In this document: positions 11 through 52,103 of the stretch, piece after piece
Layout of the letters: each line of letters begins with the position of its first letter
How positions within the stretch are numbered: the first letter of the stretch is position 1
DNA from: Escherichia phage Ge15
Reading direction: 5' to 3' (one strand)
DNA: 64,000 nt
Sequence record: PP359696.1
Program-made: the position numbers and the translations under genes
Notes under the pieces: model-generated
What the model was told of the DNA's origin: nothing
What the model saw: the letters and a program-made list of their open reading frames with translations, nothing else
Databases searched by the model: none

Positions 11-2188
11 ATGATTATCACCACTGAAAAAGAAACTATTCTTGGCAATGGTTCTAAATCAAAAGCATTTAGCATCGCAGCAAATCCTAAAGTATTTAAA
101 ATTCTATCATCTGATTTGTATACAAACAAGATTCGCGCAGTGGTCCGTGAATTGATTACCAACATGATTGATGCCCATGCTCTTAATGGAAATCCTGAAA
201 AATTTATCATTCAAGTTCCAGGACGATTAGATCCACGATTTGTTTGCCGAGATTTTGGTCCGGGTATGAGTGATTTTGATATTCAGGGTGATGATAATTC
301 TCCTGGTTTGTATAATTCATACTTCAGTTCATCTAAGGCTGAATCTAACGATTTCATTGGCGGATTTGGTTTAGGTTCTAAATCTCCGTTTAGTTATACT
401 GATACGTTTAGTATTACTTCGTATCATAAAGGTAAAATTCGTGGTTATGTAGCTTACATGGATGGCGATGGTCCACAAATTAAACCTACATTCGTGAAAG
501 AAATGGGTCCAGATGATAAAACTGGTATTGAAATTGTAGTTCCAGTTGAAGAAAAAGATTTTAGCAACTTTGCTTATGAAGTTTCTTATATCATGCGACC
601 GTTCAAAGATTTAGCTATTATTAATGGTCTTGACCGTGAAATTGATTATTTTCCGGATTTTGATGACTATTACGGTGTAAATCCAGAAAGATACTGGCCT
701 GATCGTGGTGGATTATATGCTATCTATGGCGGTATTGTTTATCCTATCGATGGTGTTATTAGAGACCGTAACTGGTTAAGCATTCGTAATGAAGTGAATT
801 ACATTAAATTTCCAATGGGTTCACTTGATATTGCTCCATCACGTGAAGCTCTTTCATTGGATGATCGCACTCGTAAAAATATTATTGAACGAGTTAAAGA
901 GCTTAGTGAGAAAGCATTTAATGAAGATGTAAAACGATTTAAAGAATCTACATCTCCTCGTCACACATACCGTGAATTGATGAAGATGGGGTATTCTGCT
1001 CGAGATTATATGATTAGTAATTCAGTCAAATTCACGACTAAAAATCTGTCATATAAGAAAATGCAGAGCATGTTTGAACCTGACAGTAAGTTATGCAATG
1101 CAGGAGTTGTGTATGAAGTAAATCTTGACCCTCGACTGAAACGCATTAAGCAAAGCCATGAAACTTCAGCCGTTGCATCAAGTTATCGTCTGTTTGGTAT
1201 TAATACAACAAAAATTAATATCGTTATTGATAATATTAAAAATCGTGTTAATATTGTCCGTGGATTAGCGCATGCGTTAGATGATAGTGAATTTAATAAC
1301 ACTTTGAATATTCATCATAATGAGCGTCTTCTGTTTATTAATCCGGAAGTAGAATCGCAGATTGATTTACTTCCTGATATTATGGCAATGTTTGAAAGTG
1401 ATGAAGTTAACATTCATTATTTGTCAGAAATTGAAGCTTTAGTTAAAAGTTATATTCCGAAGGCAGTTAAAAGTAAAGCTCCTCGTCCTAAAGCTGCTAC
1501 AGCATTTAAGTTTGAAATTAAAGACGGGCGCTGGGAAAAAGAGGAACTGTTTACACTTACGTCAGAAGCAGATGAAATTACTGGTTATGTAGCGTATATG
1601 CATCGTTCTGATATTTTCTCTATGGATGGTACTACATCTCTTTGTCATCCATCTATGAATATTTTGATTCGTATGGCTAATCTTATTGGCATTAATGAAT
1701 TTTATGTTATTCGTCCGCTTTTACAGAAAAAGGTAAAAGAACTCGGTCAGTGCCAATGTATTTTTGAAGCTTTGCGTGATTTATATGTAGATGCTTTTGA
1801 TGATGTAGATTATGATAAGTACGTAGGTTATTCAAGTTCAGCTCAACGATATATTGATAAAATTATCAAGTATCCTGAACTAGATTTTATGATGAAGTAC
1901 TTCAGTACAGATGAAGTTTCTGAAGAATATACACGACTCGCTAATATAGTTAGTTCATTGCGGGGCGTATATTTCAACGGTGGAAAAGGTACCATCGGTC
2001 ATGACATCTGGACAGTAACTAATCTTTTTGATGTATTATCAAATAATGCTTCAAAAAACAGTGATAAAATGGTTGCTGAGTTTACCAAGAAATTCCGTAT
2101 TGTTTCCGACTTCATCGGTTATCGCAACTCTTTAAGTGATGATGAAGTTTCTCAAATCGCTAAAACTATGAAGGCCCTTGCGGCCTAA
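11..2188 (+). CDS. rIIA: rIIA protein (membrane-associated, rapid-lysis/exclusion-related)
   Basis: 725-aa ORF; sequence and length match T4 rIIA; followed directly by rIIB. Confidence 0.9.
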
Positions 2189-11159: not shown

Positions 11160-11711
11160 TTACTTAAAGATATTTATAATCGCTTTGATAATAGATTTGT
11201 TTTCAAGGTCAGGGAATTTAGGGAATTCGCCGCCAAGATGTTCATGTTTTTCTAAAAGGGCAAAGAATTTTTTGAGCTCTTTAAATTTTCGTTTTTCTTC
11301 TCTATTAGCAACCTCTGCGTCAATAAGAGAACTTAAAACACTGAATAATTTATAGAGTTCATGAATTTTCTTATCACGTTGAACTACACGTTTATATGCT
11401 TCATCTTCCTTCCACCCGTCGTCGGTCCAAAGGTCAAATTCACCAGGTTCTTCTGTAGTAACATTTTGAAGAGCACCTGGAGTGTCAATAACAATTTTTT
11501 GCTTATCATATGTCCATACTGTTTTTCCTCGATGGTCTTCAACATATACCCATTCTTGCTCGCGTTCGTCAAATATAACAGCATAGCCTTCTTTAGGGTC
11601 TAAAGGTTTTTTTGGTGTCGAATGAGCCGGAAATCCTACGCCTTTTAATGGTTTATAATTTTCTTCTTTGTAAAATTCTTTAGTGTCAAAATAATAGTGA
11701 TAAATTTTCAT
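11160..11711 (-). CDS. 38: tail fibre assembly/adhesin-associated protein gp38 (T4 type)
   Basis: 183-aa ORF, same length as T4 gp38; downstream of gene 37. Confidence 0.8.
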   Translation of the reverse strand: MKIYHYYFDTKEFYKEENYKPLKGVGFPAHSTPKKPLDPKEGYAVIFDEREQEWVYVEDHRGKTVWTYDKQKIVIDTPGALQNVTTEEPGEFDLWTDDGWKEDEAYKRVVQRDKKIHELYKLFSVLSSLIDAEVANREEKRKFKELKKFFALLEKHEHLGGEFPKFPDLENKSIIKAIINIFK

Positions 11712-11716
11712 ATTCA

Positions 11717-11736
11717 GAAGGGGCCGAAGCCCCTCT
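11717..11736. terminator. hairpin gaaggggccgaagcccctc between genes 37 and 38
   Basis: GC stem with GNRA-like loop. Confidence 0.4.
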
Positions 11737-11738
11737 CC

Positions 11739-14700
11739 TTATGCTAAACGAACGATATAGTTAAAAGCAATGTTTTTAACCGTGTTTTCTGTATTACCTG
11801 TACTATTTACAGTGATAGTATGTCCGTGCGAACCAATCGCTACTGAATGCGAGTGGGCACCGATACCTACAGTGTGAGTGTGAGCACCGATACCTACAGT
11901 ATGAGCATGGTTACCCGTAGCGCTAGTAGTACCTGACCAAGTATGAGTATGGTTACCTTCTGTTGATGTTTTGGCCATATTCGACGATGCAGTAGCACCG
12001 CTCACGGTTGCAGTGAATTTAGCGTTGCCGTTTGGACCTACAGTATTGTATCCGTCATAGAATACGCTAGTGGTTATGCCGCCTTGTACCTGAGGACCTG
12101 AACGCGCGTGTTGGTGGTTACCTGCTGCGGCAGTAGTTCCACTCACCGTATGGTTATGGTTACCTGTGGTATTACTGGTTTTAGTACCATAATCAAAGCT
12201 TGAAGATGTTTTAGTACCATAATCAAAGCTTGATGTGGTTTTAGTACCCAAATCAGTATTAGATGCAGAAGCACTATGATTATGAGACTTAATACCATCA
12301 GCTTCTGCACTCAACACTGCACGACCACTCGGTTTACCCTTGATAGTTTGACCACGCATATCAGGCAGAGTGCCGGAAGGATACACAGCAGCTAACTTAG
12401 GATACAAGTCAGCATCAAATGTTTGACCTTCCATTATGGCATAACCTTCAGGAGGTGTATCAGTAGGCCAAGGAATCGGAGCACCAATTGGATAACTTGA
12501 GACAATATCTGTCTTAAGGTTATTTATTGTGGTATTCAAGTTAGCAAAATTACCAGAACCACCAGTAATATTACCATCAGTACCGAATTGAGCATTACCA
12601 ACTTTTAATGGTTTAGTAATATCGACAGAATCAGAGTTTAATGCAATACCATGTGAATATGTGTAGCTGTGCATACGAACGACGTTGCCGCCATCTCCAA
12701 TACCTAAATACCATTTCGGAACATCTGCTTTACGTCCTTGAATGAAGTTAGAAGACTCTTGTGTTGGAGCATTTATTCTAATAGCATCTGATGCCATATT
12801 TACTGTTATGCGTTGACCAGCCGTAGTTCCAGCCGCTTCTACTTTAAATCTACCGCCGCCGATATCTACATCATGATCCATGGAAACTTTACCAGTACTT
12901 AATGTAATATAGAACGGACGTAAATTAGAAATACCACCTGATTCACCAACATTCTGTGGAGTTGGAATAATATAAAGCTTATCTTCAGAACGACGGAAAA
13001 TAGCCCCGTATTCAGCATCGTAAATACGGAAAGCATCAGCAGTCCCGCCAATTTTAACCTGTCCGGTAATTGAGGCACCACCTTGAACAAACAATCCATT
13101 ATTCATTGTAACGTTGCCAACTAGAGTGCTTAATCCGTTAACTCTAAGACTTCCGTCGGTTATTAAGCTTCCTCTAGCATTAACCTGTCCATTGAACTGA
13201 GTTACAACAGGGCCTGTAGTTTCAGAACCGGTCGGAGCTACGCGTTGAGAATAGAAATAATAACCTTGGCCATCAGAAACCTCAAATACGGTTTCTCGAG
13301 CTTTATCACCAGTAGCATTAAATGAGTTACCCCATGCTTTCACGGTCACATAACTTTTGTTCTGGCCTGCACGAGTACCGCCTTCCCAAAGGATTTGTTT
13401 GGTGCCATCAATACCTGAAGCCGCTTTAAAAACTAGAGAAGCATTAGTTCCATCACCATTAAAATATAATCCATTATTAAGTTTTAATGTTTGAACAGAA
13501 GCGATGGTACCATCAGCACGCAAATTTAACGAATTTGAACCAGTTTTAATATCTAAAATGCCAGGCTCAACAAGAAGCCCATCACCCATACTAATGGACA
13601 TACGACCCGTGCCACGGAAATAGTGATACATTTTAGAATTACTGCTATACCCGATATGAGTTTGACCATCACCATTATTATTACCATCAACATCGGTACG
13701 CGCAGTAAACATTGCTTGGTTGTTATTTGGGTAATCCCATGTAGTTCCGGAATCACGGCTATAACCAACCATCAATTTTTTAGTACTGTTAATACCATTG
13801 TTCAAAATGGTAGCCGAAGAAATACCGTTGGCCATTAAATCGATAACGCCGTCGCGAACCCATTTAATACCTGTATCGTTATCACCAATGGCAATACCAA
13901 TAGAAATAGCTGAATCTAATGGATAACGTCCATTCGCACCACTATCCGGAAGACCTACGGAAATAGATTTACCTGCAGTAATACGCCCGGAGGTATCAAA
14001 CGCCCACTGGAAAGATGATGGTCCAATACCAGTCCACCAAGAAATTTCTTGTGGCTTACCTTTTCGGCAATCGGCAATTTCATGGAAAATACTTGATGCA
14101 CTTGATGCACGCAATTTACGCAAATAGTTTAAACCATTAGTAGTATTATCAGAACCATCAGCCGGTGGGTTATAAACCCAAGTAGGTAAAGAAACCCAAT
14201 CATACCCGATGTTGGCGTTAGAGACAAATGTTTTTGTACTGAAATTAATATTTTTAGTAACAATTTCAGGACCGGTGATAATACCATTAGCAGAGTTAAT
14301 ATTGCCTGACGCAGAAATATTACCACTGCGAACTTCAAGACTGCCAGAATCTACAATAAAATTACCATTACGGTTAAAGACCCAGTGTTTAGAATTGTCT
14401 GGAGCTGTAGAATCAATATAATGAACTCTAAATGAGCCTTCGCTTACTAATGTACCTACTGAAAAAGTACCGTCTTTATAACGTTGCTTAATCAGAGGAT
14501 GGTATTCAGACCCTGAGGTAGTTGAACTCAAATCGGTGAAAATTGGAGCTTTATTTGTGTGCTGATTTGCCCAAGCACCATTTCCAGCAGTTTTTGGCAA
14601 GAATTCAATATACTTTCCTGCATAAACAAACTGATTTCCATTAAGATTATACGTGCCGTTTTGTAAATAATCACCATTTTGAGTAATATTTCCACTAATG

Positions 14701-14870
14701 TTACCACCGGCAGAAATGCTTAAATCAATAATATTTCCCGAGTCATCTTTAGTAAAAAGAGTACGGTCTTTTAAGTTTATAGCCAATTCACCTTCGGCTA
14801 ATACTGAAGCAGCAGGGCGTTGACCTGCAGTTTTGCTTCTTTTAAATTGTATTTGTTTTAAAGTAGCCAT
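11739..14870 (-). CDS. 37: long tail fibre distal subunit gp37 (receptor-binding tip)
   Basis: 1043-aa ORF; C-terminus with His-x-His boxes and ...[15 protein letters not shown] as in T4 gp37. Confidence 0.9.
11853..11906 (-). repeat. 27-bp tandem duplication inside gene 37 (codes GIGAHTHTV x2)
   Basis: gtgggcaccgatacctacagtgtgagt / gtgagcaccgatacctacagtatgagc adjacent copies. Confidence 0.7.
12179..12270 (-). repeat. 30-bp tandem repeat (2 full + 1 degenerate unit) inside gene 37 (codes [10 protein letters not shown] units)
   Basis: ttttagtaccataatcaaagcttgaagatg repeated head to tail. Confidence 0.7.
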
Positions 14871-42286: not shown

Positions 42287-42737
42287 GTTAGAGATAAGAA
42301 GCAATTTTAGATGGCCATCATGTGCATTAAGTAATTTCGCCCAATGGCCTTTTGTTATGGATGGTATCCAATTTGGAGGTCTCGAAGGATTCCTCCAAGG
42401 ATGCAAGGTGAAAAATGTTGAACAACAGCGTCGTATATTTGGGTTATCCGGGCTTGCCGCCCAACAAGCTGGAAGGTCTTATGCTAGAGCTCAGGACCGT
42501 GGGACCCTCTTCTGGCTTGGAGTTCCGTTTTCAAGATACTCCCCAGCGTGGAAAGAATTATACACAAATGCATATTTTGAAGCAGCGTTCCAAAACAAGG
42601 GCTTTCGCGATGCATTACAAGCCTCGAAAGGAAAAGTTTTGAAGCACAGCATGGCTAGTGGTCTAACAAAAGATGATACAATACTAACCGAAGCTGAATT
42701 TATTGATGTGTTAAACCTATTAAGAGACTCTCTATGA
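42273..42737 (+). CDS. YbiA/NADAR (DUF1768)-like protein, 30.3-like
   Basis: motif SNFAQWPFVMDGIQFGGLEGFLQGCKV parallels YbiA FSNFAAWP..DG...SEHYFQAQK; locally higher GC. Confidence 0.6.
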   Translation: MKMSELEIRSNFRWPSCALSNFAQWPFVMDGIQFGGLEGFLQGCKVKNVEQQRRIFGLSGLAAQQAGRSYARAQDRGTLFWLGVPFSRYSPAWKELYTNAYFEAAFQNKGFRDALQASKGKVLKHSMASGLTKDDTILTEAEFIDVLNLLRDSL

Positions 42738-43597
42738 AGCCTACTATTTTGACTGATATTGATGGAGTATGTTTAAGCTGGCAATCAGGCCTTCCTTATT
42801 TTGCTCAGAAATATAATCTTCCGTTAGAACATATTTTAAAAATGATCCAAGATGAGAAATTTATTTCTCCGGGTAAACTCTTTAATTGTGATGAAGAACT
42901 TGGTGTCAAGTTAATTGAAAAATATAATCGATCAGATTTTATTCGTTATTTGTCTCCATATAAAGATGCACTGTGTGTAATTAACAAATTAAAAGAAGAT
43001 TATAATTTTGTAGCTGTTACAGCATTGGGTGATTCTATTGACGCTCTGTTGAATCGTCAATTTAATTTGAATGCTCTTTTTCCTGGTGCCTTCTCAGAAG
43101 TAATGATGTGTGGTCATGATTCTTCAAAAGAAGAGTTATTCAAAAAGGCAAAAGAGAAATATAACGTAATTTGTTATATTGACGATCTCGCTCACCATTG
43201 CGATCATGCGAGTGAAATATTAAATGTTCCTGTTTATTGGATGGCGCGAGGAGAGCGTGACAATATTCCAAAAACCGCTCAGCGAGTTTATACATGGAAT
43301 GATGTAGAAAATAAGCTTTTTTCGCCGAAGGAAAATAAAGAAAGTTTTGATAATGAAAAAGCTATAAAAGATGTAATTGAGAAGATGGTTAAAAACGATT
43401 CTTTTCGTTGGAACACTACCTGGAGAACTCCTGGATTTAATCCGTATAATCCATATTATACACATCCATATAATCCATATTATACACACCCGTATCATAT
43501 GAATCCATTCCATACGTGGAGTTATACTAAGCCTGGTGATGCAGGGTATTTTAATAGATTTACTAGTGGTGATAATATTTTCCAAGGAGCATTCTAA
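42734..43597 (+). CDS. HAD-like hydrolase with C-terminal Tyr/Pro/His-rich repeats, 30.2-like
   Basis: N-terminal ILTDIDGV (DxDG HAD motif I); C-terminal NPYNPYYTHPYNPYYTHPYHMNPFH repeats. Confidence 0.6.
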   Translation: MKPTILTDIDGVCLSWQSGLPYFAQKYNLPLEHILKMIQDEKFISPGKLFNCDEELGVKLIEKYNRSDFIRYLSPYKDALCVINKLKEDYNFVAVTALGDSIDALLNRQFNLNALFPGAFSEVMMCGHDSSKEELFKKAKEKYNVICYIDDLAHHCDHASEILNVPVYWMARGERDNIPKTAQRVYTWNDVENKLFSPKENKESFDNEKAIKDVIEKMVKNDSFRWNTTWRTPGFNPYNPYYTHPYNPYYTHPYHMNPFHTWSYTKPGDAGYFNRFTSGDNIFQGAF

Positions 43598-43644
43598 TGT
43601 TTGTCGTTCACACTATTTATGAAAATGAAGGTAATACTACACGT
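43232..43644 (+). repeat. 413-bp direct repeat, copy 1 (3' end of 30.2-like gene plus first 48 bp of 30.1-like gene)
   Basis: identical to 45617-46029 by direct comparison. Confidence 0.9.
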
Positions 43645-44017
43645 CCGTATAATCCATATTATACACATCCATATAATCCATAATTTAATCCGTATAATCC
43701 ATATTATACACATCCTATAAAAAATTAAAATTAACCACAATAAGCGAATTGATTAAAAATATTTATTGTTCATTATCCGTCAGTAATCATCCCGGGCAAA
43801 TGCCCGGGAATTATTCTAGGATTATTTTCTTTGTTAAAAAAGACAAACGGTATTAACTGATGTATTTACTATTTACCGCTCCCTGCAGGGGGGATTATCA
43901 GAATCCGCGGTTATTCATTATTTATATACATTCAATAAAAAAGTAACCTCATAAAAAATCCTGTACTCACAGGGTGATGCGGGATAACTGACGTAAGGAG
44001 TGCTGCAGGGATTTGAT
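43645..44017. other. left arm of inserted block: scrambled phage micro-repeats then unique AT-rich DNA with GC palindromes
   Basis: 43645-43680 repeats 43442-43477, 43684-43715 repeats 43436-43467; then cccgggcaaatgcccggg, ctgcagggggg, ccgcgg. Confidence 0.6.
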
Positions 44018-45616: not shown

Positions 45617-46029
45617 GTTTATTGGATGGCGCGAGGAGAGCGTGACAATATTCCAAAAACCGCTCAGCGAGTTTATACATGGAATGATGTAGAAAATAAG
45701 CTTTTTTCGCCGAAGGAAAATAAAGAAAGTTTTGATAATGAAAAAGCTATAAAAGATGTAATTGAGAAGATGGTTAAAAACGATTCTTTTCGTTGGAACA
45801 CTACCTGGAGAACTCCTGGATTTAATCCGTATAATCCATATTATACACATCCATATAATCCATATTATACACACCCGTATCATATGAATCCATTCCATAC
45901 GTGGAGTTATACTAAGCCTGGTGATGCAGGGTATTTTAATAGATTTACTAGTGGTGATAATATTTTCCAAGGAGCATTCTAATGTTTGTCGTTCACACTA
46001 TTTATGAAAATGAAGGTAATACTACACGT
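45617..46029 (+). repeat. 413-bp direct repeat, copy 2
   Basis: identical to 43232-43644. Confidence 0.9.
45626..45982 (+). pseudogene. truncated duplicate of the 30.2-like gene 3' end (118 codons from internal Met)
   Basis: translation identical to the C-terminal 118 aa of the 42734-43597 product; upstream context is foreign. Confidence 0.6.
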
Positions 46030-47945: not shown

Positions 47946-50042
47946 ATGATGGAACTCATTACAGAATTATTTGACGAAGATACTACTCTTCCGATTACAA
48001 ACTTAAATCCAAAGAAGAAAATACCACAAATTTTTTCAGTTCATGTTGATGACGCAATTGAACAACCAGGCTTTCGTTTATGTACCTATACATCTGGAGG
48101 TGATACTAATCGCGATTTAAAGATGGGCGATAAAATGATGCATATTGTTCCTTTTACATTAACTGCTAAAGGTTCAATTGCTAAATTAAAAGGTCTCGGT
48201 CCAAGCCCAATTAATTACATCAATTCAGTTTTTACTGTTGCGATGCAGACGATGCGTCAGTATAAAATTGATGCCTGTATGCTTCGTATTCTTAAGTCTA
48301 AAACTGCTGGTCAAGCTCGTCAAATTCAACTTATTGCTGATAGACTTATCCGCAGTCGTTCAGGTGGCAGATACGTCCTTCTTAAGGAACTCTGGGATTA
48401 CGATAAAAAGTATGCATATATTCTTATACATCGCAAAAATGTATCACTAGAAGACATTCCAGGAGTTCCAGAAATTAGCACCGAGCTCTTTACTAAAGTT
48501 GAATCAAAGGTTGGTGATGTTTATATCAATAAAGATACTGGAGCTCAAGTAACTAAAAATGAGGCAATTGCTGCATCTATTGCGCAAGAAAACGATAAAC
48601 GTTCTGACCAAGCTGTAATCGTTAAAGTTAAAATTTCCCGTAGAGCAATTGCACAAAGTCAATCATTAGAATCTTCTAGATTTGAAAGTGAATTATTCCA
48701 AAAGTATGAATCTACCGCAGCTAATTTCAATAAACCTGCTACGGCTCCTTTAATTCCCGAAGCAGAAGAAATGAAGCTTGGAATTAATTCATTAGCTTCT
48801 AAAACTAAAGCAGCAAAAATTATTGCTGAAGGAACTGCAGATGAACTTCATTATGACTATAAATTCTTTTCAAAAAGTGAGGTTAATGAAGTTTCTGAAA
48901 AAATTAAAGATGTAATTCTTAATGCGATTAAAAATGAACCAACTACTTCAATAAAATGTTTAGAGAAATACGCAGCAGCTGTTAATCAATTATTTGAAGA
49001 ATATAAAGATAATTGGCTTGATAAACATAATAAAACCCGTAAAGGACAGCCAGATGAAGTCTGGGAAGAAATGACTAAAAATTCCTGGAACGCAGCAAAA
49101 ACTAAATTCCTCAAAAGAATGATTTACAGCTTTTCTGGAATTGGTGCAGGTCCAATGATTGATATTACTATTGCCCGTGATGGTTCTAAATATACTCCAT
49201 CACAAAAGCGTGGCATTAGAGAGTATTGCGGTTCAGGATATACTGACATCAATAATCTTCTTTTAGGACGCTACAATCCAGAACGATATGATGTAATGAG
49301 TGAAAAAGAAATTGAATCTGCTATAAATAACTTAGATTCAGCTTTTGAAAATGGTGACCGTATACCAGAAGGCATTACAGTTTATCGTGCTCAAAGCATG
49401 ACTGCTCCTATATACGAAGCACTAGTTAAAAATAAAGTGTTCTATTTCAGAAATTTTGTATCTACTTCTTTAACTCCTATCATTTTTGGACGTTTTGGAA
49501 TTACGCATACTGGTATTGGTCTTTTAGAACCAGAAGCTCGTAATGAATTGACAGTTGATAAAAATGAAGAAGGAATAACTATTAATCCAAGCGAAATAAG
49601 AGCGTATAAAGAAAATCCTGAATACGTTAAAGTTCAAATAGGATGGGCAATTGATGGAGCTCATAAAGTTAATGTTGTATATCCAGGAAGTCTCGGAATA
49701 GCAACAGAAGCTGAAGTTATTCTACCACGAGGATTGATGGTCAAAGTTAATAAAATAACTGATGCTTCTAATAATGACGGAACAACATCTAATAATACAA
49801 AACTCATTCAAGCTGAAGTTATGACTACGGAAGAACTCACCGAATCAGTCATTTATGACGGTGACCGTCTAATGGAAACTGGTGAAGTAGTTGCAATGAC
49901 AGGTGATATTGAAATAGAAGACAGAGTTGACTTTGCATCATTTGTTTCATCAAATGTTAAACAAAAAGTAGAATCATCTCTTGGAATTATTGCGTCTTGC
50001 ATAGATATTACAAACATGCCTTACAAGTTCGTTCAAGGATAA
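47946..50042 (+). CDS. alt: Alt-family ADP-ribosyltransferase (capsid-packaged, injected)
   Basis: 698-aa ORF; N-terminal MELITELFDE; position between ligase and baseplate genes as T4 alt. Confidence 0.75.
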   Translation: MMELITELFDEDTTLPITNLNPKKKIPQIFSVHVDDAIEQPGFRLCTYTSGGDTNRDLKMGDKMMHIVPFTLTAKGSIAKLKGLGPSPINYINSVFTVAMQTMRQYKIDACMLRILKSKTAGQARQIQLIADRLIRSRSGGRYVLLKELWDYDKKYAYILIHRKNVSLEDIPGVPEISTELFTKVESKVGDVYINKDTGAQVTKNEAIAASIAQENDKRSDQAVIVKVKISRRAIAQSQSLESSRFESELFQKYESTAANFNKPATAPLIPEAEEMKLGINSLASKTKAAKIIAEGTADELHYDYKFFSKSEVNEVSEKIKDVILNAIKNEPTTSIKCLEKYAAAVNQLFEEYKDNWLDKHNKTRKGQPDEVWEEMTKNSWNAAKTKFLKRMIYSFSGIGAGPMIDITIARDGSKYTPSQKRGIREYCGSGYTDINNLLLGRYNPERYDVMSEKEIESAINNLDSAFENGDRIPEGITVYRAQSMTAPIYEALVKNKVFYFRNFVSTSLTPIIFGRFGITHTGIGLLEPEARNELTVDKNEEGITINPSEIRAYKENPEYVKVQIGWAIDGAHKVNVVYPGSLGIATEAEVILPRGLMVKVNKITDASNNDGTTSNNTKLIQAEVMTTEELTESVIYDGDRLMETGEVVAMTGDIEIEDRVDFASFVSSNVKQKVESSLGIIASCIDITNMPYKFVQG

Positions 50043-50045
50043 ATC

Positions 50046-52103
50046 ATGGAACTTATTACAGAATTATTTGACGGCGCTTCGGCGCCGGTTGTTAACTTAA
50101 ATCCTAAGCATAAAATACCTCAAATTTTTGCTATTCAAACCGGTGAAGAAAGCGTGCTTCCTGGATTTAGATTTTGTACATACACCTCTGGCGGTGATAC
50201 AAATAAAAACGTTAAGCCAGGCGATAAAATGATGCATATCGTAATGATAGGTGTTAATGAGAAACTATCATTAGTTAAACTTAAAAACTTGGGTGGAAAT
50301 CCAATTGGTGTCATTAATGCGGTTTTTGATACTGCTCTTCAAACAATGAAACAGTATAAAATTGACGCATGCCTATTCCGCGTACTAAAAAGTAAAACAA
50401 ATGGTGCAGCTCGTCAAATGCAAGTTATTGCTGACCGTTTAGTACGTACTAAAGGAGCAGGTCGATATGTTCTTTTAAAGGAAATCTGGGATTACGATAA
50501 AAAGTATGCATATATTATGGTTTACCGTAAAAATGCCAATTTAGAAGACATTCCAGGTGTACCTCCTATTTCAACTGAGTTATTCACAAAAGTTGAATCA
50601 AAGGTTGGTGATGTTTATGTAGATGTTAAAACAGGTAATGCTGTTCCTAAAGCTGTTGCTGTTGCTGCTTCTATTGCTTTAGAAAATGATAAGCGCACGG
50701 ATCAAGCTGTTATTCAGAAAACTAAAATTAGTCGTCGATTGGCAGCACAAGCTCAATATTCTACTGTCGATGCTTCGCTTCAGGGTGATAGCTTCGCTGC
50801 CAAGAAATATCAAGAGTTTGAATCTAAAGTTCCGGTATATAAAGCAGAAGGACCAATGAACTCTGGTGTTATTCAGATTGGTTCAAACTTCAGCAAAGGA
50901 GCTATCGGTGGTATGAGAAGTGCTTCTCGTTTTAAATCTAACGATTATGAACTAGAAAGCTTCCGAAATCATATTGCATTGGCTCATGCACGTTTACGTG
51001 ATCCGTCTATCAGACTGCAGAGCGATATAACACATCAAGGTTCTCAAGAATATTTAAAGAATAAAGAATTTTTTGATTATAAAACCGATAAAATTTTGAG
51101 CGATCTCGCTGACATTAATATTTCTAATAGCTTTGATGTTATTAAGAAAATTATCAATGATTTAGTTAAAGGTTCTAAAGCCACGCCAGACGAAAAGGTA
51201 GCTATTATTCAATTTGTTATGAATGGCATTTATAAATTGATTAATGAATCTGCTGCTCAGGCATATGAATACGCAAGCACCGAAGTAACTCCAAAAGGAT
51301 TAACTCAGGCTGAGTCTGATGTAATAGAAGATTATTGTGCAGATTCATATGTTGAAATGAACTCGTTCCTCTTGGGTAAACCAGATTCTACCCGTGAAGA
51401 ATACATGGAACGAGCTATTAAACACATCGAGACAATGGATTCTGCATTCGCTAAAGGTTCAGTTCTTCCTCCAGGAACTACGCTTTATCGTGGACAAGAA
51501 GTTACTTTTAAAACTTTACGTCATAATATTGAAAATAAAATGTTCTATTTCAAGAACTTCGTATCCACATCGCTTAAACCAAATATCTTCGGTGAGCATG
51601 GTAAAAACTATATGGCTCTAGATGATTCCGGCGCAGTATTTTCTGGCGAAGGAGAAGGTTCAGTTGATGCTGAAGATTTAATGCATATGGGTAGTCACTC
51701 TGCTTATGCGAATGAAGACGCTGAAACTAGCGTAGGTATGGTAATTAAAGGGGCTGAGCGAATCAAAGTTATCGTTCCAGGTCATTTATCAGGATTTCCA
51801 TCAGAAGCTGAAGTTATTTTACCGCGTGGAATTTTGCTGAAGATTAATAAAGTGAGCACGTACATGATGAAAGAAACTGCTTATAATAAGTATCTAATCG
51901 AAGGCACAATCGTTCCTCCTTCTGAACAATTAGAAGAATCGGTATATGATGGCGATCATCTAATGGAAACTGGTGAAGTTCGTCCAATGGCTGGGTTTAA
52001 TCAATTCCTTGTAGAAGAATCAAAAGAAGAGGAAAACGAAGTTTCTCAAATCTTGGCTTCTTTGGTTAACATCAACGGAATGTCTAAAAAGTTCAAGATG
52101 TAG
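50046..52103 (+). CDS. Alt-like paralogue
   Basis: 685-aa ORF; same N-terminus MELITELFD and collinear similarity to the upstream alt product. Confidence 0.7.
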   Translation: MELITELFDGASAPVVNLNPKHKIPQIFAIQTGEESVLPGFRFCTYTSGGDTNKNVKPGDKMMHIVMIGVNEKLSLVKLKNLGGNPIGVINAVFDTALQTMKQYKIDACLFRVLKSKTNGAARQMQVIADRLVRTKGAGRYVLLKEIWDYDKKYAYIMVYRKNANLEDIPGVPPISTELFTKVESKVGDVYVDVKTGNAVPKAVAVAASIALENDKRTDQAVIQKTKISRRLAAQAQYSTVDASLQGDSFAAKKYQEFESKVPVYKAEGPMNSGVIQIGSNFSKGAIGGMRSASRFKSNDYELESFRNHIALAHARLRDPSIRLQSDITHQGSQEYLKNKEFFDYKTDKILSDLADINISNSFDVIKKIINDLVKGSKATPDEKVAIIQFVMNGIYKLINESAAQAYEYASTEVTPKGLTQAESDVIEDYCADSYVEMNSFLLGKPDSTREEYMERAIKHIETMDSAFAKGSVLPPGTTLYRGQEVTFKTLRHNIENKMFYFKNFVSTSLKPNIFGEHGKNYMALDDSGAVFSGEGEGSVDAEDLMHMGSHSAYANEDAETSVGMVIKGAERIKVIVPGHLSGFPSEAEVILPRGILLKINKVSTYMMKETAYNKYLIEGTIVPPSEQLEESVYDGDHLMETGEVRPMAGFNQFLVEESKEEENEVSQILASLVNINGMSKKFKM

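Follow-up and report, generated by a model that had tools for sequence, protein, structure and literature searches.

The two in-frame tandem repeats near the 3' end of gene 37 of Escherichia phage Ge15 are probably two halves of one structural polymorphism that concerns how many layers make up the iron-stapled stem of the gp37 needle. In the 64,000-nt stretch of this genome that we analysed (record PP359696.1; the window), the gp37 stem would amount to that of T4 plus one layer, with 10 aa added where the chain runs up the stem and 9 aa where it runs down. Layer number would be a trait of an old, widespread allele class, inherited or acquired in a mosaic, rather than the result of fresh slippage.

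Both repeats had been noticed in a preliminary description of this DNA, and both are real. When the codons of gene 37 were shuffled 400 times, the best tandem repeat of period at least 9 scored 17.5 on average and 65 at most, whereas the two arrays of the unshuffled gene score 92 and 125; none of the 400 shuffles gave a repeat as strong. Only five arrays in the whole 64-kb window score at least 70, and two of them are the gene 37 arrays. Tandem Repeats Finder locates the 30-bp array at 12177-12255 (2.6 copies, 87% matches, score 123), and placement in codon phase resolves it, as had been described, into two full units and a degenerate third (Table 1). The two full units, each with an FDYG motif, are identical at 27/30 nt, and the general form of this ascending 10-aa unit is x-D-[L/Y]-G-T-K-T. 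The 27-bp array is found at 11853-11905 (2.0 copies, 92% matches, score 92), and its two VGIGAHxHx units, taken in codon phase, are identical at 21/27 nt. The reported tandem duplication of a His-x-His box thus stands, but its reading as GIGAHTHTV twice does not: the protein has GIGAHTHTV followed by GIGAHSHSV, and the stretch repeated exactly is TVGIGAH (twice).

By its domain matches, the product of gene 37 is a T4-type gp37. Adhesin needles of this type are interwoven trimers that hold iron ions along their axis, and their tips bind LPS or a protein of the outer membrane. Pfam Collar (PF07484) scores 43.8 bits against a cut-off of 24 and gp37_trimer (PF20744) 42.5 bits against 21.7, and a C-terminal fragment matches the chain of PDB 2XGF with a phmmer E-value of 2.6e-81 (query 2-264, chain residues 17-242). 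Overall identity with T4 gp37 is 53%, and the best phage record for the gene 37-38 region reaches at most about 90% nucleotide identity. The match of the gene 38 product to Pfam Caudo_TAP is marginal (22.2 bits, cut-off 22.1), and in 8/8 relatives the gene at the syntenic position carries the annotation 'tail fiber assembly'. Because gene 38 encodes a T4-type chaperone and not a T2-type adhesin, the adhesin must be carried by gp37 itself. The ORF list holds no plus-strand ORF of at least 80 aa beneath gene 37, and an overlapping feature was rejected.

Table 1. Positions of genes 37 and 38, the subdomains of the gp37 needle and the repeat units in the window
Feature	Position	Strand	Basis
Gene 38, T4-type tail-fibre assembly chaperone, 183 aa	11160..11711	-	ORF list, Pfam, synteny
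Gene 37, long tail fibre distal subunit with C-terminal adhesin needle, 1043 aa	11739..14870	-	ORF list, translation, Pfam
Knob/collar domain, N-terminal part, aa 791-861 (T4 811-881)	12288..12500	-	ungapped alignment to 2XGF, T4
Stem ascending arm, aa 862-921, 60 aa: three 10-aa units between His box 1 and His boxes 2 and 3	12108..12287	-	
30-bp/10-aa array, three units	12174-12263	-	Tandem Repeats Finder, codon-phase coordinates, alignments to T4 and 2XGF
30-bp array, degenerate unit	12234-12263	-	codon phase
30-bp array, next unit	12204-12233	-	codon phase
30-bp array, last unit	12174-12203	-	codon phase
Tip (head) subdomain, aa 922-967, 46 aa	11970..12107	-	homology to T4 932-959
Stem descending arm, aa 968-1026, 59 aa, five His-x-His boxes	11793..11969	-	
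27-bp/9-aa His-box array, four boxes	11817-11924	-	Tandem Repeats Finder, coordinates, alignments
His box SATGNHAHT	11898-11924	-	codon phase
His box VGIGAHTHT	11871-11897	-	codon phase
His box VGIGAHSHS	11844-11870	-	codon phase
His box VAIGSHGHT	11817-11843	-	codon phase
Knob domain, C-terminal part, aa 1027-1043	11742..11792	-	identical to T4

Structural facts on the T4 needle were drawn from PMC6957217, PMC9603124 and PMC11705849. [quoted passage not shown] With these borders transferred by homology, both arrays fall in the stem subdomain, and not in the receptor-binding tip to which they had been assigned. The tip subdomain, aa 922-967, is free of any repeat and, by its homology to the T4 tip, is the probable receptor-contacting part. 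The needle of the window has eight His-x-His boxes, three ascending and five descending, and the last box is followed by a tail of 29 aa, a length that is invariant in 214/214 tips.

Alignment of the gp37 C-terminus with T4 and relatives, the check that had been proposed, gives one unit more than T4 in each array. Consistent with this, T4 gene 37 does not share the repeat structure: Tandem Repeats Finder returns none there. Homology extends over the whole knob, stem and tip fragment solved in 2XGF, and in the alignments of this part the only indels outside the tip are the absence from T4 of 10 aa and of 9 aa, corresponding to one FDYG unit and one VGIGAHxHx box. The T4 stem therefore has arms of 50 and 50 aa with four descending boxes and seven boxes in all, whereas that of the window has arms of 60 and 59 aa with five and eight. 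The tip inserts (46 aa in the window, 28 aa in T4) are unrelated in sequence, while the knob sequence, the His-x-His boxes, the DLG/FDYG units, the last 29 residues and a downstream gp38 chaperone are common to both. At 1043 aa the protein is indeed longer than T4 gp37 (1026 aa), as translation and alignment confirm. This difference of 17 aa does not come from the repeats alone, since the C-terminal part is 37 aa longer (207 against 170 aa; 10 + 9 in the stem and 18 in the tip subdomain) and a net loss of 20 aa in the shaft offsets the gain.

Because the chain runs up the stem, turns at the tip and runs down again, the two arms must match in length, as they do in T4. We surveyed 225 distinct complete homologous tips from phage, prophage and metagenome, measuring each arm from its first to its last His box, and derived a balanced-arm rule under which the ascending arm exceeds the descending one by 13-19 aa. 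The window tip (56 - 41 = 15) lies within this range, as do 223/225 tips. Over the 225 tips, which are related and recombining and hence not independent observations (in terms of independent gains or losses they probably reflect around ten length classes), ascending and descending lengths are correlated with r=0.994 and a slope of 0.95. Ten of 11 length classes, which span 3 to 7 descending boxes, are balanced, and 0/20000 class permutations match the observed balance. Each added pair of units contributes exactly +10 and +9, as in the series (32,18), (42,27), (52,36). By these lengths, one 10-aa unit up is paired with one 9-aa His box down. The one genuine exception, the metagenomic 5-up/4-down tip L002 from IMG/VR contig 3300030021_000020, has two FDYG units and only four descending boxes, so an unbalanced stem is either tolerated or, in this case, an assembly chimera.

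About 20 further apparent exceptions arose from a parser that accepted only F[DENQ][YHFW]G and assigned the head to the largest gap. On inspection they proved to be degenerate units (TDLG, VDYG, FDYS, YDYA) or misplaced heads, and they disappeared under the length-based measure. Tips P0219, in which the second ascending His box is lost, and P0008, with a box spacing of 15 aa, were likewise parser artefacts. We found no statement of the arm-matching rule in the literature searched, from which the primary structure paper (Bartual et al. 2010) is excepted; the rule is the single modest addition of this work to what is known.

The pairing suggests how a layer may be built. In the lower stem, an ascending 10-aa unit would lie outside one descending V-G-I-G-A-H-x-H-x box, and the box histidines from the three chains would hold one axial iron per layer. 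In an antiparallel register, ascending and descending residue numbers sum to 1891, and it fits the two contacts between the arms that have been published, G921-F970 (sum 1891) and H929-G964 (sum 1893) (PMC6957217). In T4, the H998 box would thereby face TDLG and the H989 box FDYG; in the window, D873, F882 and F892 would face H1015, H1006 and H997. The layer register, which derives from these two contacts and arithmetic, predicts an eighth iron site in the window compared with seven in T4. The stem would be about 10 residues longer per arm, or very roughly 2.5-3 nm at a rise per residue assumed for extended chains. Units are probably gained, lost or homogenised when the 27-30-bp repeats undergo gene conversion or unequal exchange with one another, whole tips probably pass between phages through recombination, and selection for a foldable trimer would remove unbalanced combinations. 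The main determinant of receptor specificity is probably the 46-aa tip insert, which is unrelated to that of T4.

A more speculative extension, which we regard as unlikely, is that the stem length of gp37/Stf needles can itself evolve under selection in discrete steps of one layer (a 10-aa unit up, a 9-aa box down and one iron) and acts as a molecular ruler for the reach of the tip through O-antigen or capsule. Fixation of a layer would then require a pair of coupled changes separated by about 330 bp, and L002 and other unbalanced forms would represent rare intermediates or dead ends. If true, this would supply a simple design rule for fibre-length engineering.

The arrays had been described as expansions, but they are neither private to this phage nor recent. 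The 207-aa tip architecture, with three units up and five boxes down, is identical in 8/8 sampled relatives (Mosigvirus, Tequatrovirus, Gaprivervirus and one record without an assigned genus), and there is no sign of copy-number variation of either array among these eight. Seven further phages from five genera all have balanced arms. A probe over both FDYG units was covered to at least 80% in 194 of the 241 matching phage records, lambda stf included; every listed match was ungapped, and coverage in T4 was only 56%. T4 is thus the short minority and the two-FDYG-unit state the common one. Being the same in about 190 other sequenced phages, lambda included, the repeat layout is ordinary for tail-fibre tips of its type. 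In SHBML-50-1 the flanks are T4-like, yet there are two FDYG units and five descending boxes. The best 120 matches of a search of 5.8 billion proteins were all 214-462 aa long and mostly prophage or partial tail-fibre proteins; given this bias, the full-length T-even gp37 sequences were taken from the phage collection.

Since the two-unit state is common in phage records, T4 may be a contracted form. A stronger version would make the five-layer form ancestral and T4 a deletion derivative, with the state in the window simply the normal one. Most of the phage collection has the two-FDYG form, which is seen in lambda stf, Dhakavirus, Mosigvirus, Gaprivervirus and Tequatrovirus, and the paralogous units of lambda are old, being identical at only 18/30 and 18/27 nt. 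We nevertheless find this version improbable, as forms with four layers (72 of the 225 tips) and with three (32 tips) are also widespread among the tail fibres of prophages, and recombination obscures the direction of change. The layered-stem explanation can accommodate this version, polarity being the sole point of difference.

The closest relatives also indicate how the present allele may have been put together. In vB_EcoM_VR25 (KP007361, Gaprivervirus) about 2 aa of the tip are changed, the tip subdomain is nearly identical, and the last ~360 nt match the window exactly; the FDYG units of O157 typing phage 3 (KP869101) are identical to the window's. Both phages, together with Mosigvirus NRG-P0074 and SHSML-52-1, have the same 207-aa architecture. 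From these nucleotide comparisons the allele is a mosaic, with FDYG units as in O157 typing phage 3 and His boxes as in VR25. Lambda Stf (orf-314) and its counterparts in lambdoid and P1-like prophages follow the same plan of knob, stem and tip, with the 10-aa units and His boxes, and the layer count of lambda Stf (3+5) equals that of the window. Lambda-type Stf differs in its tip insert and fibre shaft, has about 60-64% amino acid identity, and carries the older, more diverged units noted above. The FDYG units are identical at 27/30 nt in VR25 and O157 typing phage 3, as in the window, and at 22-23/30 in other phages. In ESCO10 they are identical at 28/30, both with a lineage-specific TCATCA, and the His-box units of vB_EQ1 are identical at 27/27. 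Exchange within the arrays does occur, to judge from this homogenisation of units in some lineages.

The preliminary description had instead put forward slippage in the tip domain as a plausible route to host-range variation. On this reading, the receptor-binding tip would contain two independent slippage-prone arrays whose copy number actively alters host range in this phage. Tandem, in-frame units of the identities given above would suit such a process, as would the freshly homogenised units of vB_EQ1 and ESCO10 and a copy number unlike that of T4. However, the copy number is the same in the eight relatives, most records match the two-unit probe, and the arrays lie in the stem, outside the tip subdomain to which contact with LPS/OmpC has been mapped. 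Co-variation is also unexpected from independent slippage, and because unit numbers co-vary almost perfectly across homologues, the arrays are not independent slippage sites. Slippage rates would moreover be low, as there are only two or three units of 27-30 bp that are 78-90% identical. The arrays do not resemble contingency repeats, which have many near-identical short units and varying copy number. We therefore consider this reading quite doubtful.

A precedent for the slippage reading does exist. Duplications in the gp37 adhesin domain are reported to expand the host range of T4 (Tetart, Repoila, Monod and Krisch 1996, J Mol Biol 258:726), so that the general idea of an altered host range through such duplications is already published. 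The T4 duplications were laboratory-selected and reportedly extended the host range to Yersinia pseudotuberculosis, whereas the extra units in the window are a fixed, widely shared natural architecture; both are in frame and affect the part of gene 37 that encodes the C-terminal adhesin. The 27-bp unit of the window is itself a His box, in one copy above T4. Repeated His-box motifs reportedly mediated the T4 duplications.

That the extra units are an assembly artefact with a mis-resolved repeat count, as can happen with short tandem repeats, is extremely improbable, because units of 27-30 bp that have diverged are spanned by ordinary reads, the unit count and frame are identical in eight independently sequenced relatives and some 190 records, the ORF is intact and the arms are balanced.

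The layered stem carries little weight for this phage in particular, since the layout is common and a near-identical tip is already in GenBank (VR25). As the textbook T4 protein has the shorter stem, differences from T4 at this place should not be read as expansions or host-range determinants unless relatives are checked. For engineering or annotating gp37/Stf-type adhesins, stem units should be changed in pairs, 10 aa up with 9 aa down, and work on specificity is better aimed at the tip insert (aa 922-967) than at the repeats. Among relatives, the number of His boxes per chain ranges from about 5 to 10, and the predicted iron load per fibre varies accordingly.

Tandem Repeats Finder placed two arrays, with periods of 27 and 30 bp, near the 3' end of gene 37 (table). 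With its output and the codon-phase coordinates, the preliminary description of two in-frame repeats near the C-terminus of gp37 is essentially right; of the GIGAHTHTV motif that it read twice, the first copy holds and the second is GIGAHSHSV. The repeats far exceed what chance produces: the arrays score 92 and 125 in the real gene versus at most 65 in 400 of 400 codon shuffles of gene 37. In the whole 64-kb window, just five arrays reach a score of 70. The ORF list holds no plus-strand ORF of at least 80 aa overlapping gene 37.

Coordinates of gene 37, its repeat units, its neighbour and the needle subdomains
Feature	Position	Strand	Details
Gene 37 ORF	11739-14870	minus	1043 aa
27-bp period array	11853-11905	minus	2.0 copies; Tandem Repeats Finder, 92% matches
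30-bp period array	12177-12255	minus	2.6 copies; Tandem Repeats Finder, 87% matches
Three 10-aa units, 30-bp array in codon phase	12234-12263, 12204-12233, 12174-12203	minus	
Four consecutive 9-aa His boxes	11817-11924 in all	minus	include 27-bp array
His box within 27-bp array	11871-11897	minus	
His box VGIGAHSHS	11844-11870	minus	
His box VAIGSHGHT	within 11817-11924	minus	last of the four
Gene 38	11160-11711		T4-type gp38 chaperone, 183 aa; Caudo_TAP score just over cut-off
Knob	aa 791-861 and 1027-1043		homology to T4
Stem	aa 862-921 and 968-1026		homology to T4
Tip	aa 922-967		homology to T4

The C-terminal 264 aa match the T4 gp37 needle over the whole chain (PDB 2XGF, E=2.6e-81), and Pfam finds a phage tail collar domain and the gp37 trimerisation region. 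Genes 37-38 have their best match, at ~90% nucleotide identity, in Mosigvirus phages among 50,697 phage records, and relatives annotate the gene syntenic to gene 38 as a tail fibre assembly protein. With a T4-type gp38 chaperone next door, gp37 itself should bear the adhesin, as in T4. Between the gp37 stop codon (directly 3') and the gene 38 start lies a G+C-rich hairpin, GGAGAGGGGCTTCGGCCCCTTCT (~11716-11738, minus strand), where relatives annotate a transcription terminator.

In T4, the gp37 chain runs from knob to tip and then turns back (PMC9603124), and His-x-His boxes hold seven irons along the needle (PMC6957217). The knob comprises residues 811-881 and 1010-1026, the stem 882-931 and 960-1009, and the tip 932-959 (Islam et al., PMC6957217); LPS and OmpC contacts map to the tip subdomain (PMC6957217). 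By homology to these borders, the array of 10-aa FDYG units belongs to the ascending arm of the stem and the array of 9-aa VGIGAHxHx boxes to its descending arm. Neither lies in the receptor-binding tip, where they had originally been placed.

Aligned to the window, T4 gp37 (NC_000866) lacks exactly one FDYG unit and one VGIGAHxHx box, and Tandem Repeats Finder detects no tandem repeats in T4 gene 37; the repeat structure is thus not that of T4. Between the two indels, the T4 segment is shorter than the window's and unrelated. The ORF is longer than T4's, as first noted, by 17 aa, but the repeats alone do not explain the difference: the last 207 aa correspond to 170 aa in T4 (+37 = 10 + 9 + 18), which is offset in part by a shaft 20 aa shorter overall.

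All eight phages examined with the window's tip type share the 207-aa tip architecture: NRG-P0074, SHSML-52-1, KAW3E185, WFbE185 and O157 typing phage 3 (Mosigvirus), phiD1 (Tequatrovirus), VR25 (Gaprivervirus; about two residues differ from the window's tip) and vB_EQ1 (a record without genus). With these eight alike, there is no sign that copy number varies in the window's lineage, contrary to the suggestion that repeat slippage offers a route to host-range variation. Of 241 phage records hit by a 121-nt probe across both FDYG units, 194 covered 80% or more of it, ungapped throughout among the matches listed and with lambda stf orf-314 included; T4 records covered only 56%. The two-FDYG form is the majority in the phage collection, and T4 is a short minority. 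Judging from their distribution, the extra units in the window are neither private nor a recent expansion.

We inspected the best 120 homologues from a search of 5.8 billion proteins, 80 IMG/VR loci and 150 representatives at 50% identity, which suggested that modules ahead of the tip equal in number the His boxes past it. Because the units of the ascending arm follow a generic 10-aa motif of variable sequence, x-D-[L/Y]-G-[T/S]-K-T (TDLG, FDYG, VDYG etc.), each arm was measured as the distance from its first to its last His box. The two lengths differed by 13-19 aa (here called balanced) in 223 of 225 distinct complete tips (r=0.994, slope 0.95). Of the 11 length classes, which span (32,18) to (76,59) aa ascending and descending, ten were balanced; none of 20000 class permutations achieved this. 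Each added unit pair contributes exactly +10/+9, as in (32,18), (42,27) and (52,36). Tips with four descending boxes may have, on the ascending arm, one FDYG unit with two additional His boxes, or else two FDYG units with one; thus length is conserved, not unit type. Seven more phages (Tequatrovirus, Dhakavirus, Lambdavirus, Punavirus, Felixounavirus) were all balanced, and SHBML-50-1 has T4-like flanks with a stem +1/+1 relative to T4. Even the very long stems of two representative proteins, each with seven His boxes on the way down, are balanced: P0164 carries four FDYG units, and in P0222 the ascending arm measures 73 aa, its FDYG units lying ~20 aa apart.

The sole unbalanced tip with a full set of His boxes among the 225 is that of L002 (IMGVR_UViG_3300030021_000020, ~1501-2265 of the locus), with two FDYG units up and only four boxes down. 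One descending box is identical to T4's (27/27) and the ascending arm resembles the window's; the locus may be either a natural recombinant of five-layer and four-layer alleles or a chimeric metagenome assembly. In another representative, P0219, the second ascending His box has been lost but the spacing is kept. An apparent exception, P0008, was a parsing artefact.

Antiparallel arms of equal length would pair T4 residues whose numbers sum to 1891. The two published inter-arm contacts, at sums of 1891 (G921-F970) and 1893 (H929-G964), agree with this register (Islam et al., PMC6957217). The T4 His boxes are numbered here H883, H915 and H929 (up) and H966, H980, H989 and H998 (down), in agreement with the published H929/H931. 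In this register the H998 box would face D893/L894 of the TDLG unit, and the H989 box F902 of the FDYG unit; for the window, whose sum is 1888, the predicted partners are D873 with H1015, F882 with H1006 and F892 with H997. We infer that the extra FDYG unit and extra His box probably form one added stem layer, the unit on its outside and the box on its inside; such a layer is predicted to bring an eighth iron site and to lengthen each arm by ~10 residues.

Within a phage, FDYG units share 18/30 nt in lambda, 22-23/30 in most Mosigvirus, 27/30 in the window, VR25 and O157 typing phage 3, and 28/30 in ESCO10, where both carry a lineage-specific TCATCA; for the VGIGAHxHx units the figure runs from 18/27 (lambda) up to 27/27 (vB_EQ1). 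Such lineage-specific changes common to paralogous units indicate that gene conversion or unequal exchange acts within the arrays. The window's allele is, on its sequence, a mosaic: its FDYG units match O157 typing phage 3 exactly, and its last ~360 nt do the same with VR25. In vB_EQ1 (PQ516281), two VGIGAHSHT boxes are identical (27/27 nt). Its annotated gp37 spans 3534 nt (~1177 aa) and a 962-nt probe matched as two pieces over 1391 nt; the gene thus has a large additional stretch on the upstream side of its needle.

Three points were known: that the T4 gp37 tip and lambda Stf are homologous (Montag et al. 1989), that T4 gp37 has seven His-x-His iron sites (PMC6957217) and that duplications inside the adhesin domain reportedly expand T4 host range (Tetart et al. 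1996). Hairpin topology naturally implies equal arms, hence the balance rule; we found no explicit statement of it in the literature searched, to which the primary structure paper did not belong. We conclude that the repeat layout is the common architecture of gp37-type adhesins, in the structural stem and not the binding surface, with the coupled-layer rule a modest, testable by-product.

Elsewhere in the window, an exact 413-nt direct repeat occupies 43232-43644 and 45617-46029 (starts 2385 nt apart, flanks unrelated). A 287-aa ORF (42734-43597, plus strand) has its 3' end in the first copy, and the second copy holds a 118-aa ORF (45626-45982) that matches the C-terminus of the longer ORF exactly. 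The copies may flank a 2.4-kb insertion, or the pair may be a duplication introduced by the assembly. Arrays of 24 bp (consensus ATCCGTATAATCCATATTATACAC) lie at 43440-43495, 43638-43720 and 45825-45880. Those within the repeat code for PYNPYYTH repeats; the array at 43638-43720 is mostly just 3' of the first copy and apparently non-coding. Diverged direct repeats pair 48370-48663 with 50464-50757 and 47991-48148 with 50085-50242, both at 71-72% identity and a spacing of 2094 nt, which suggests two paralogous genes in tandem.
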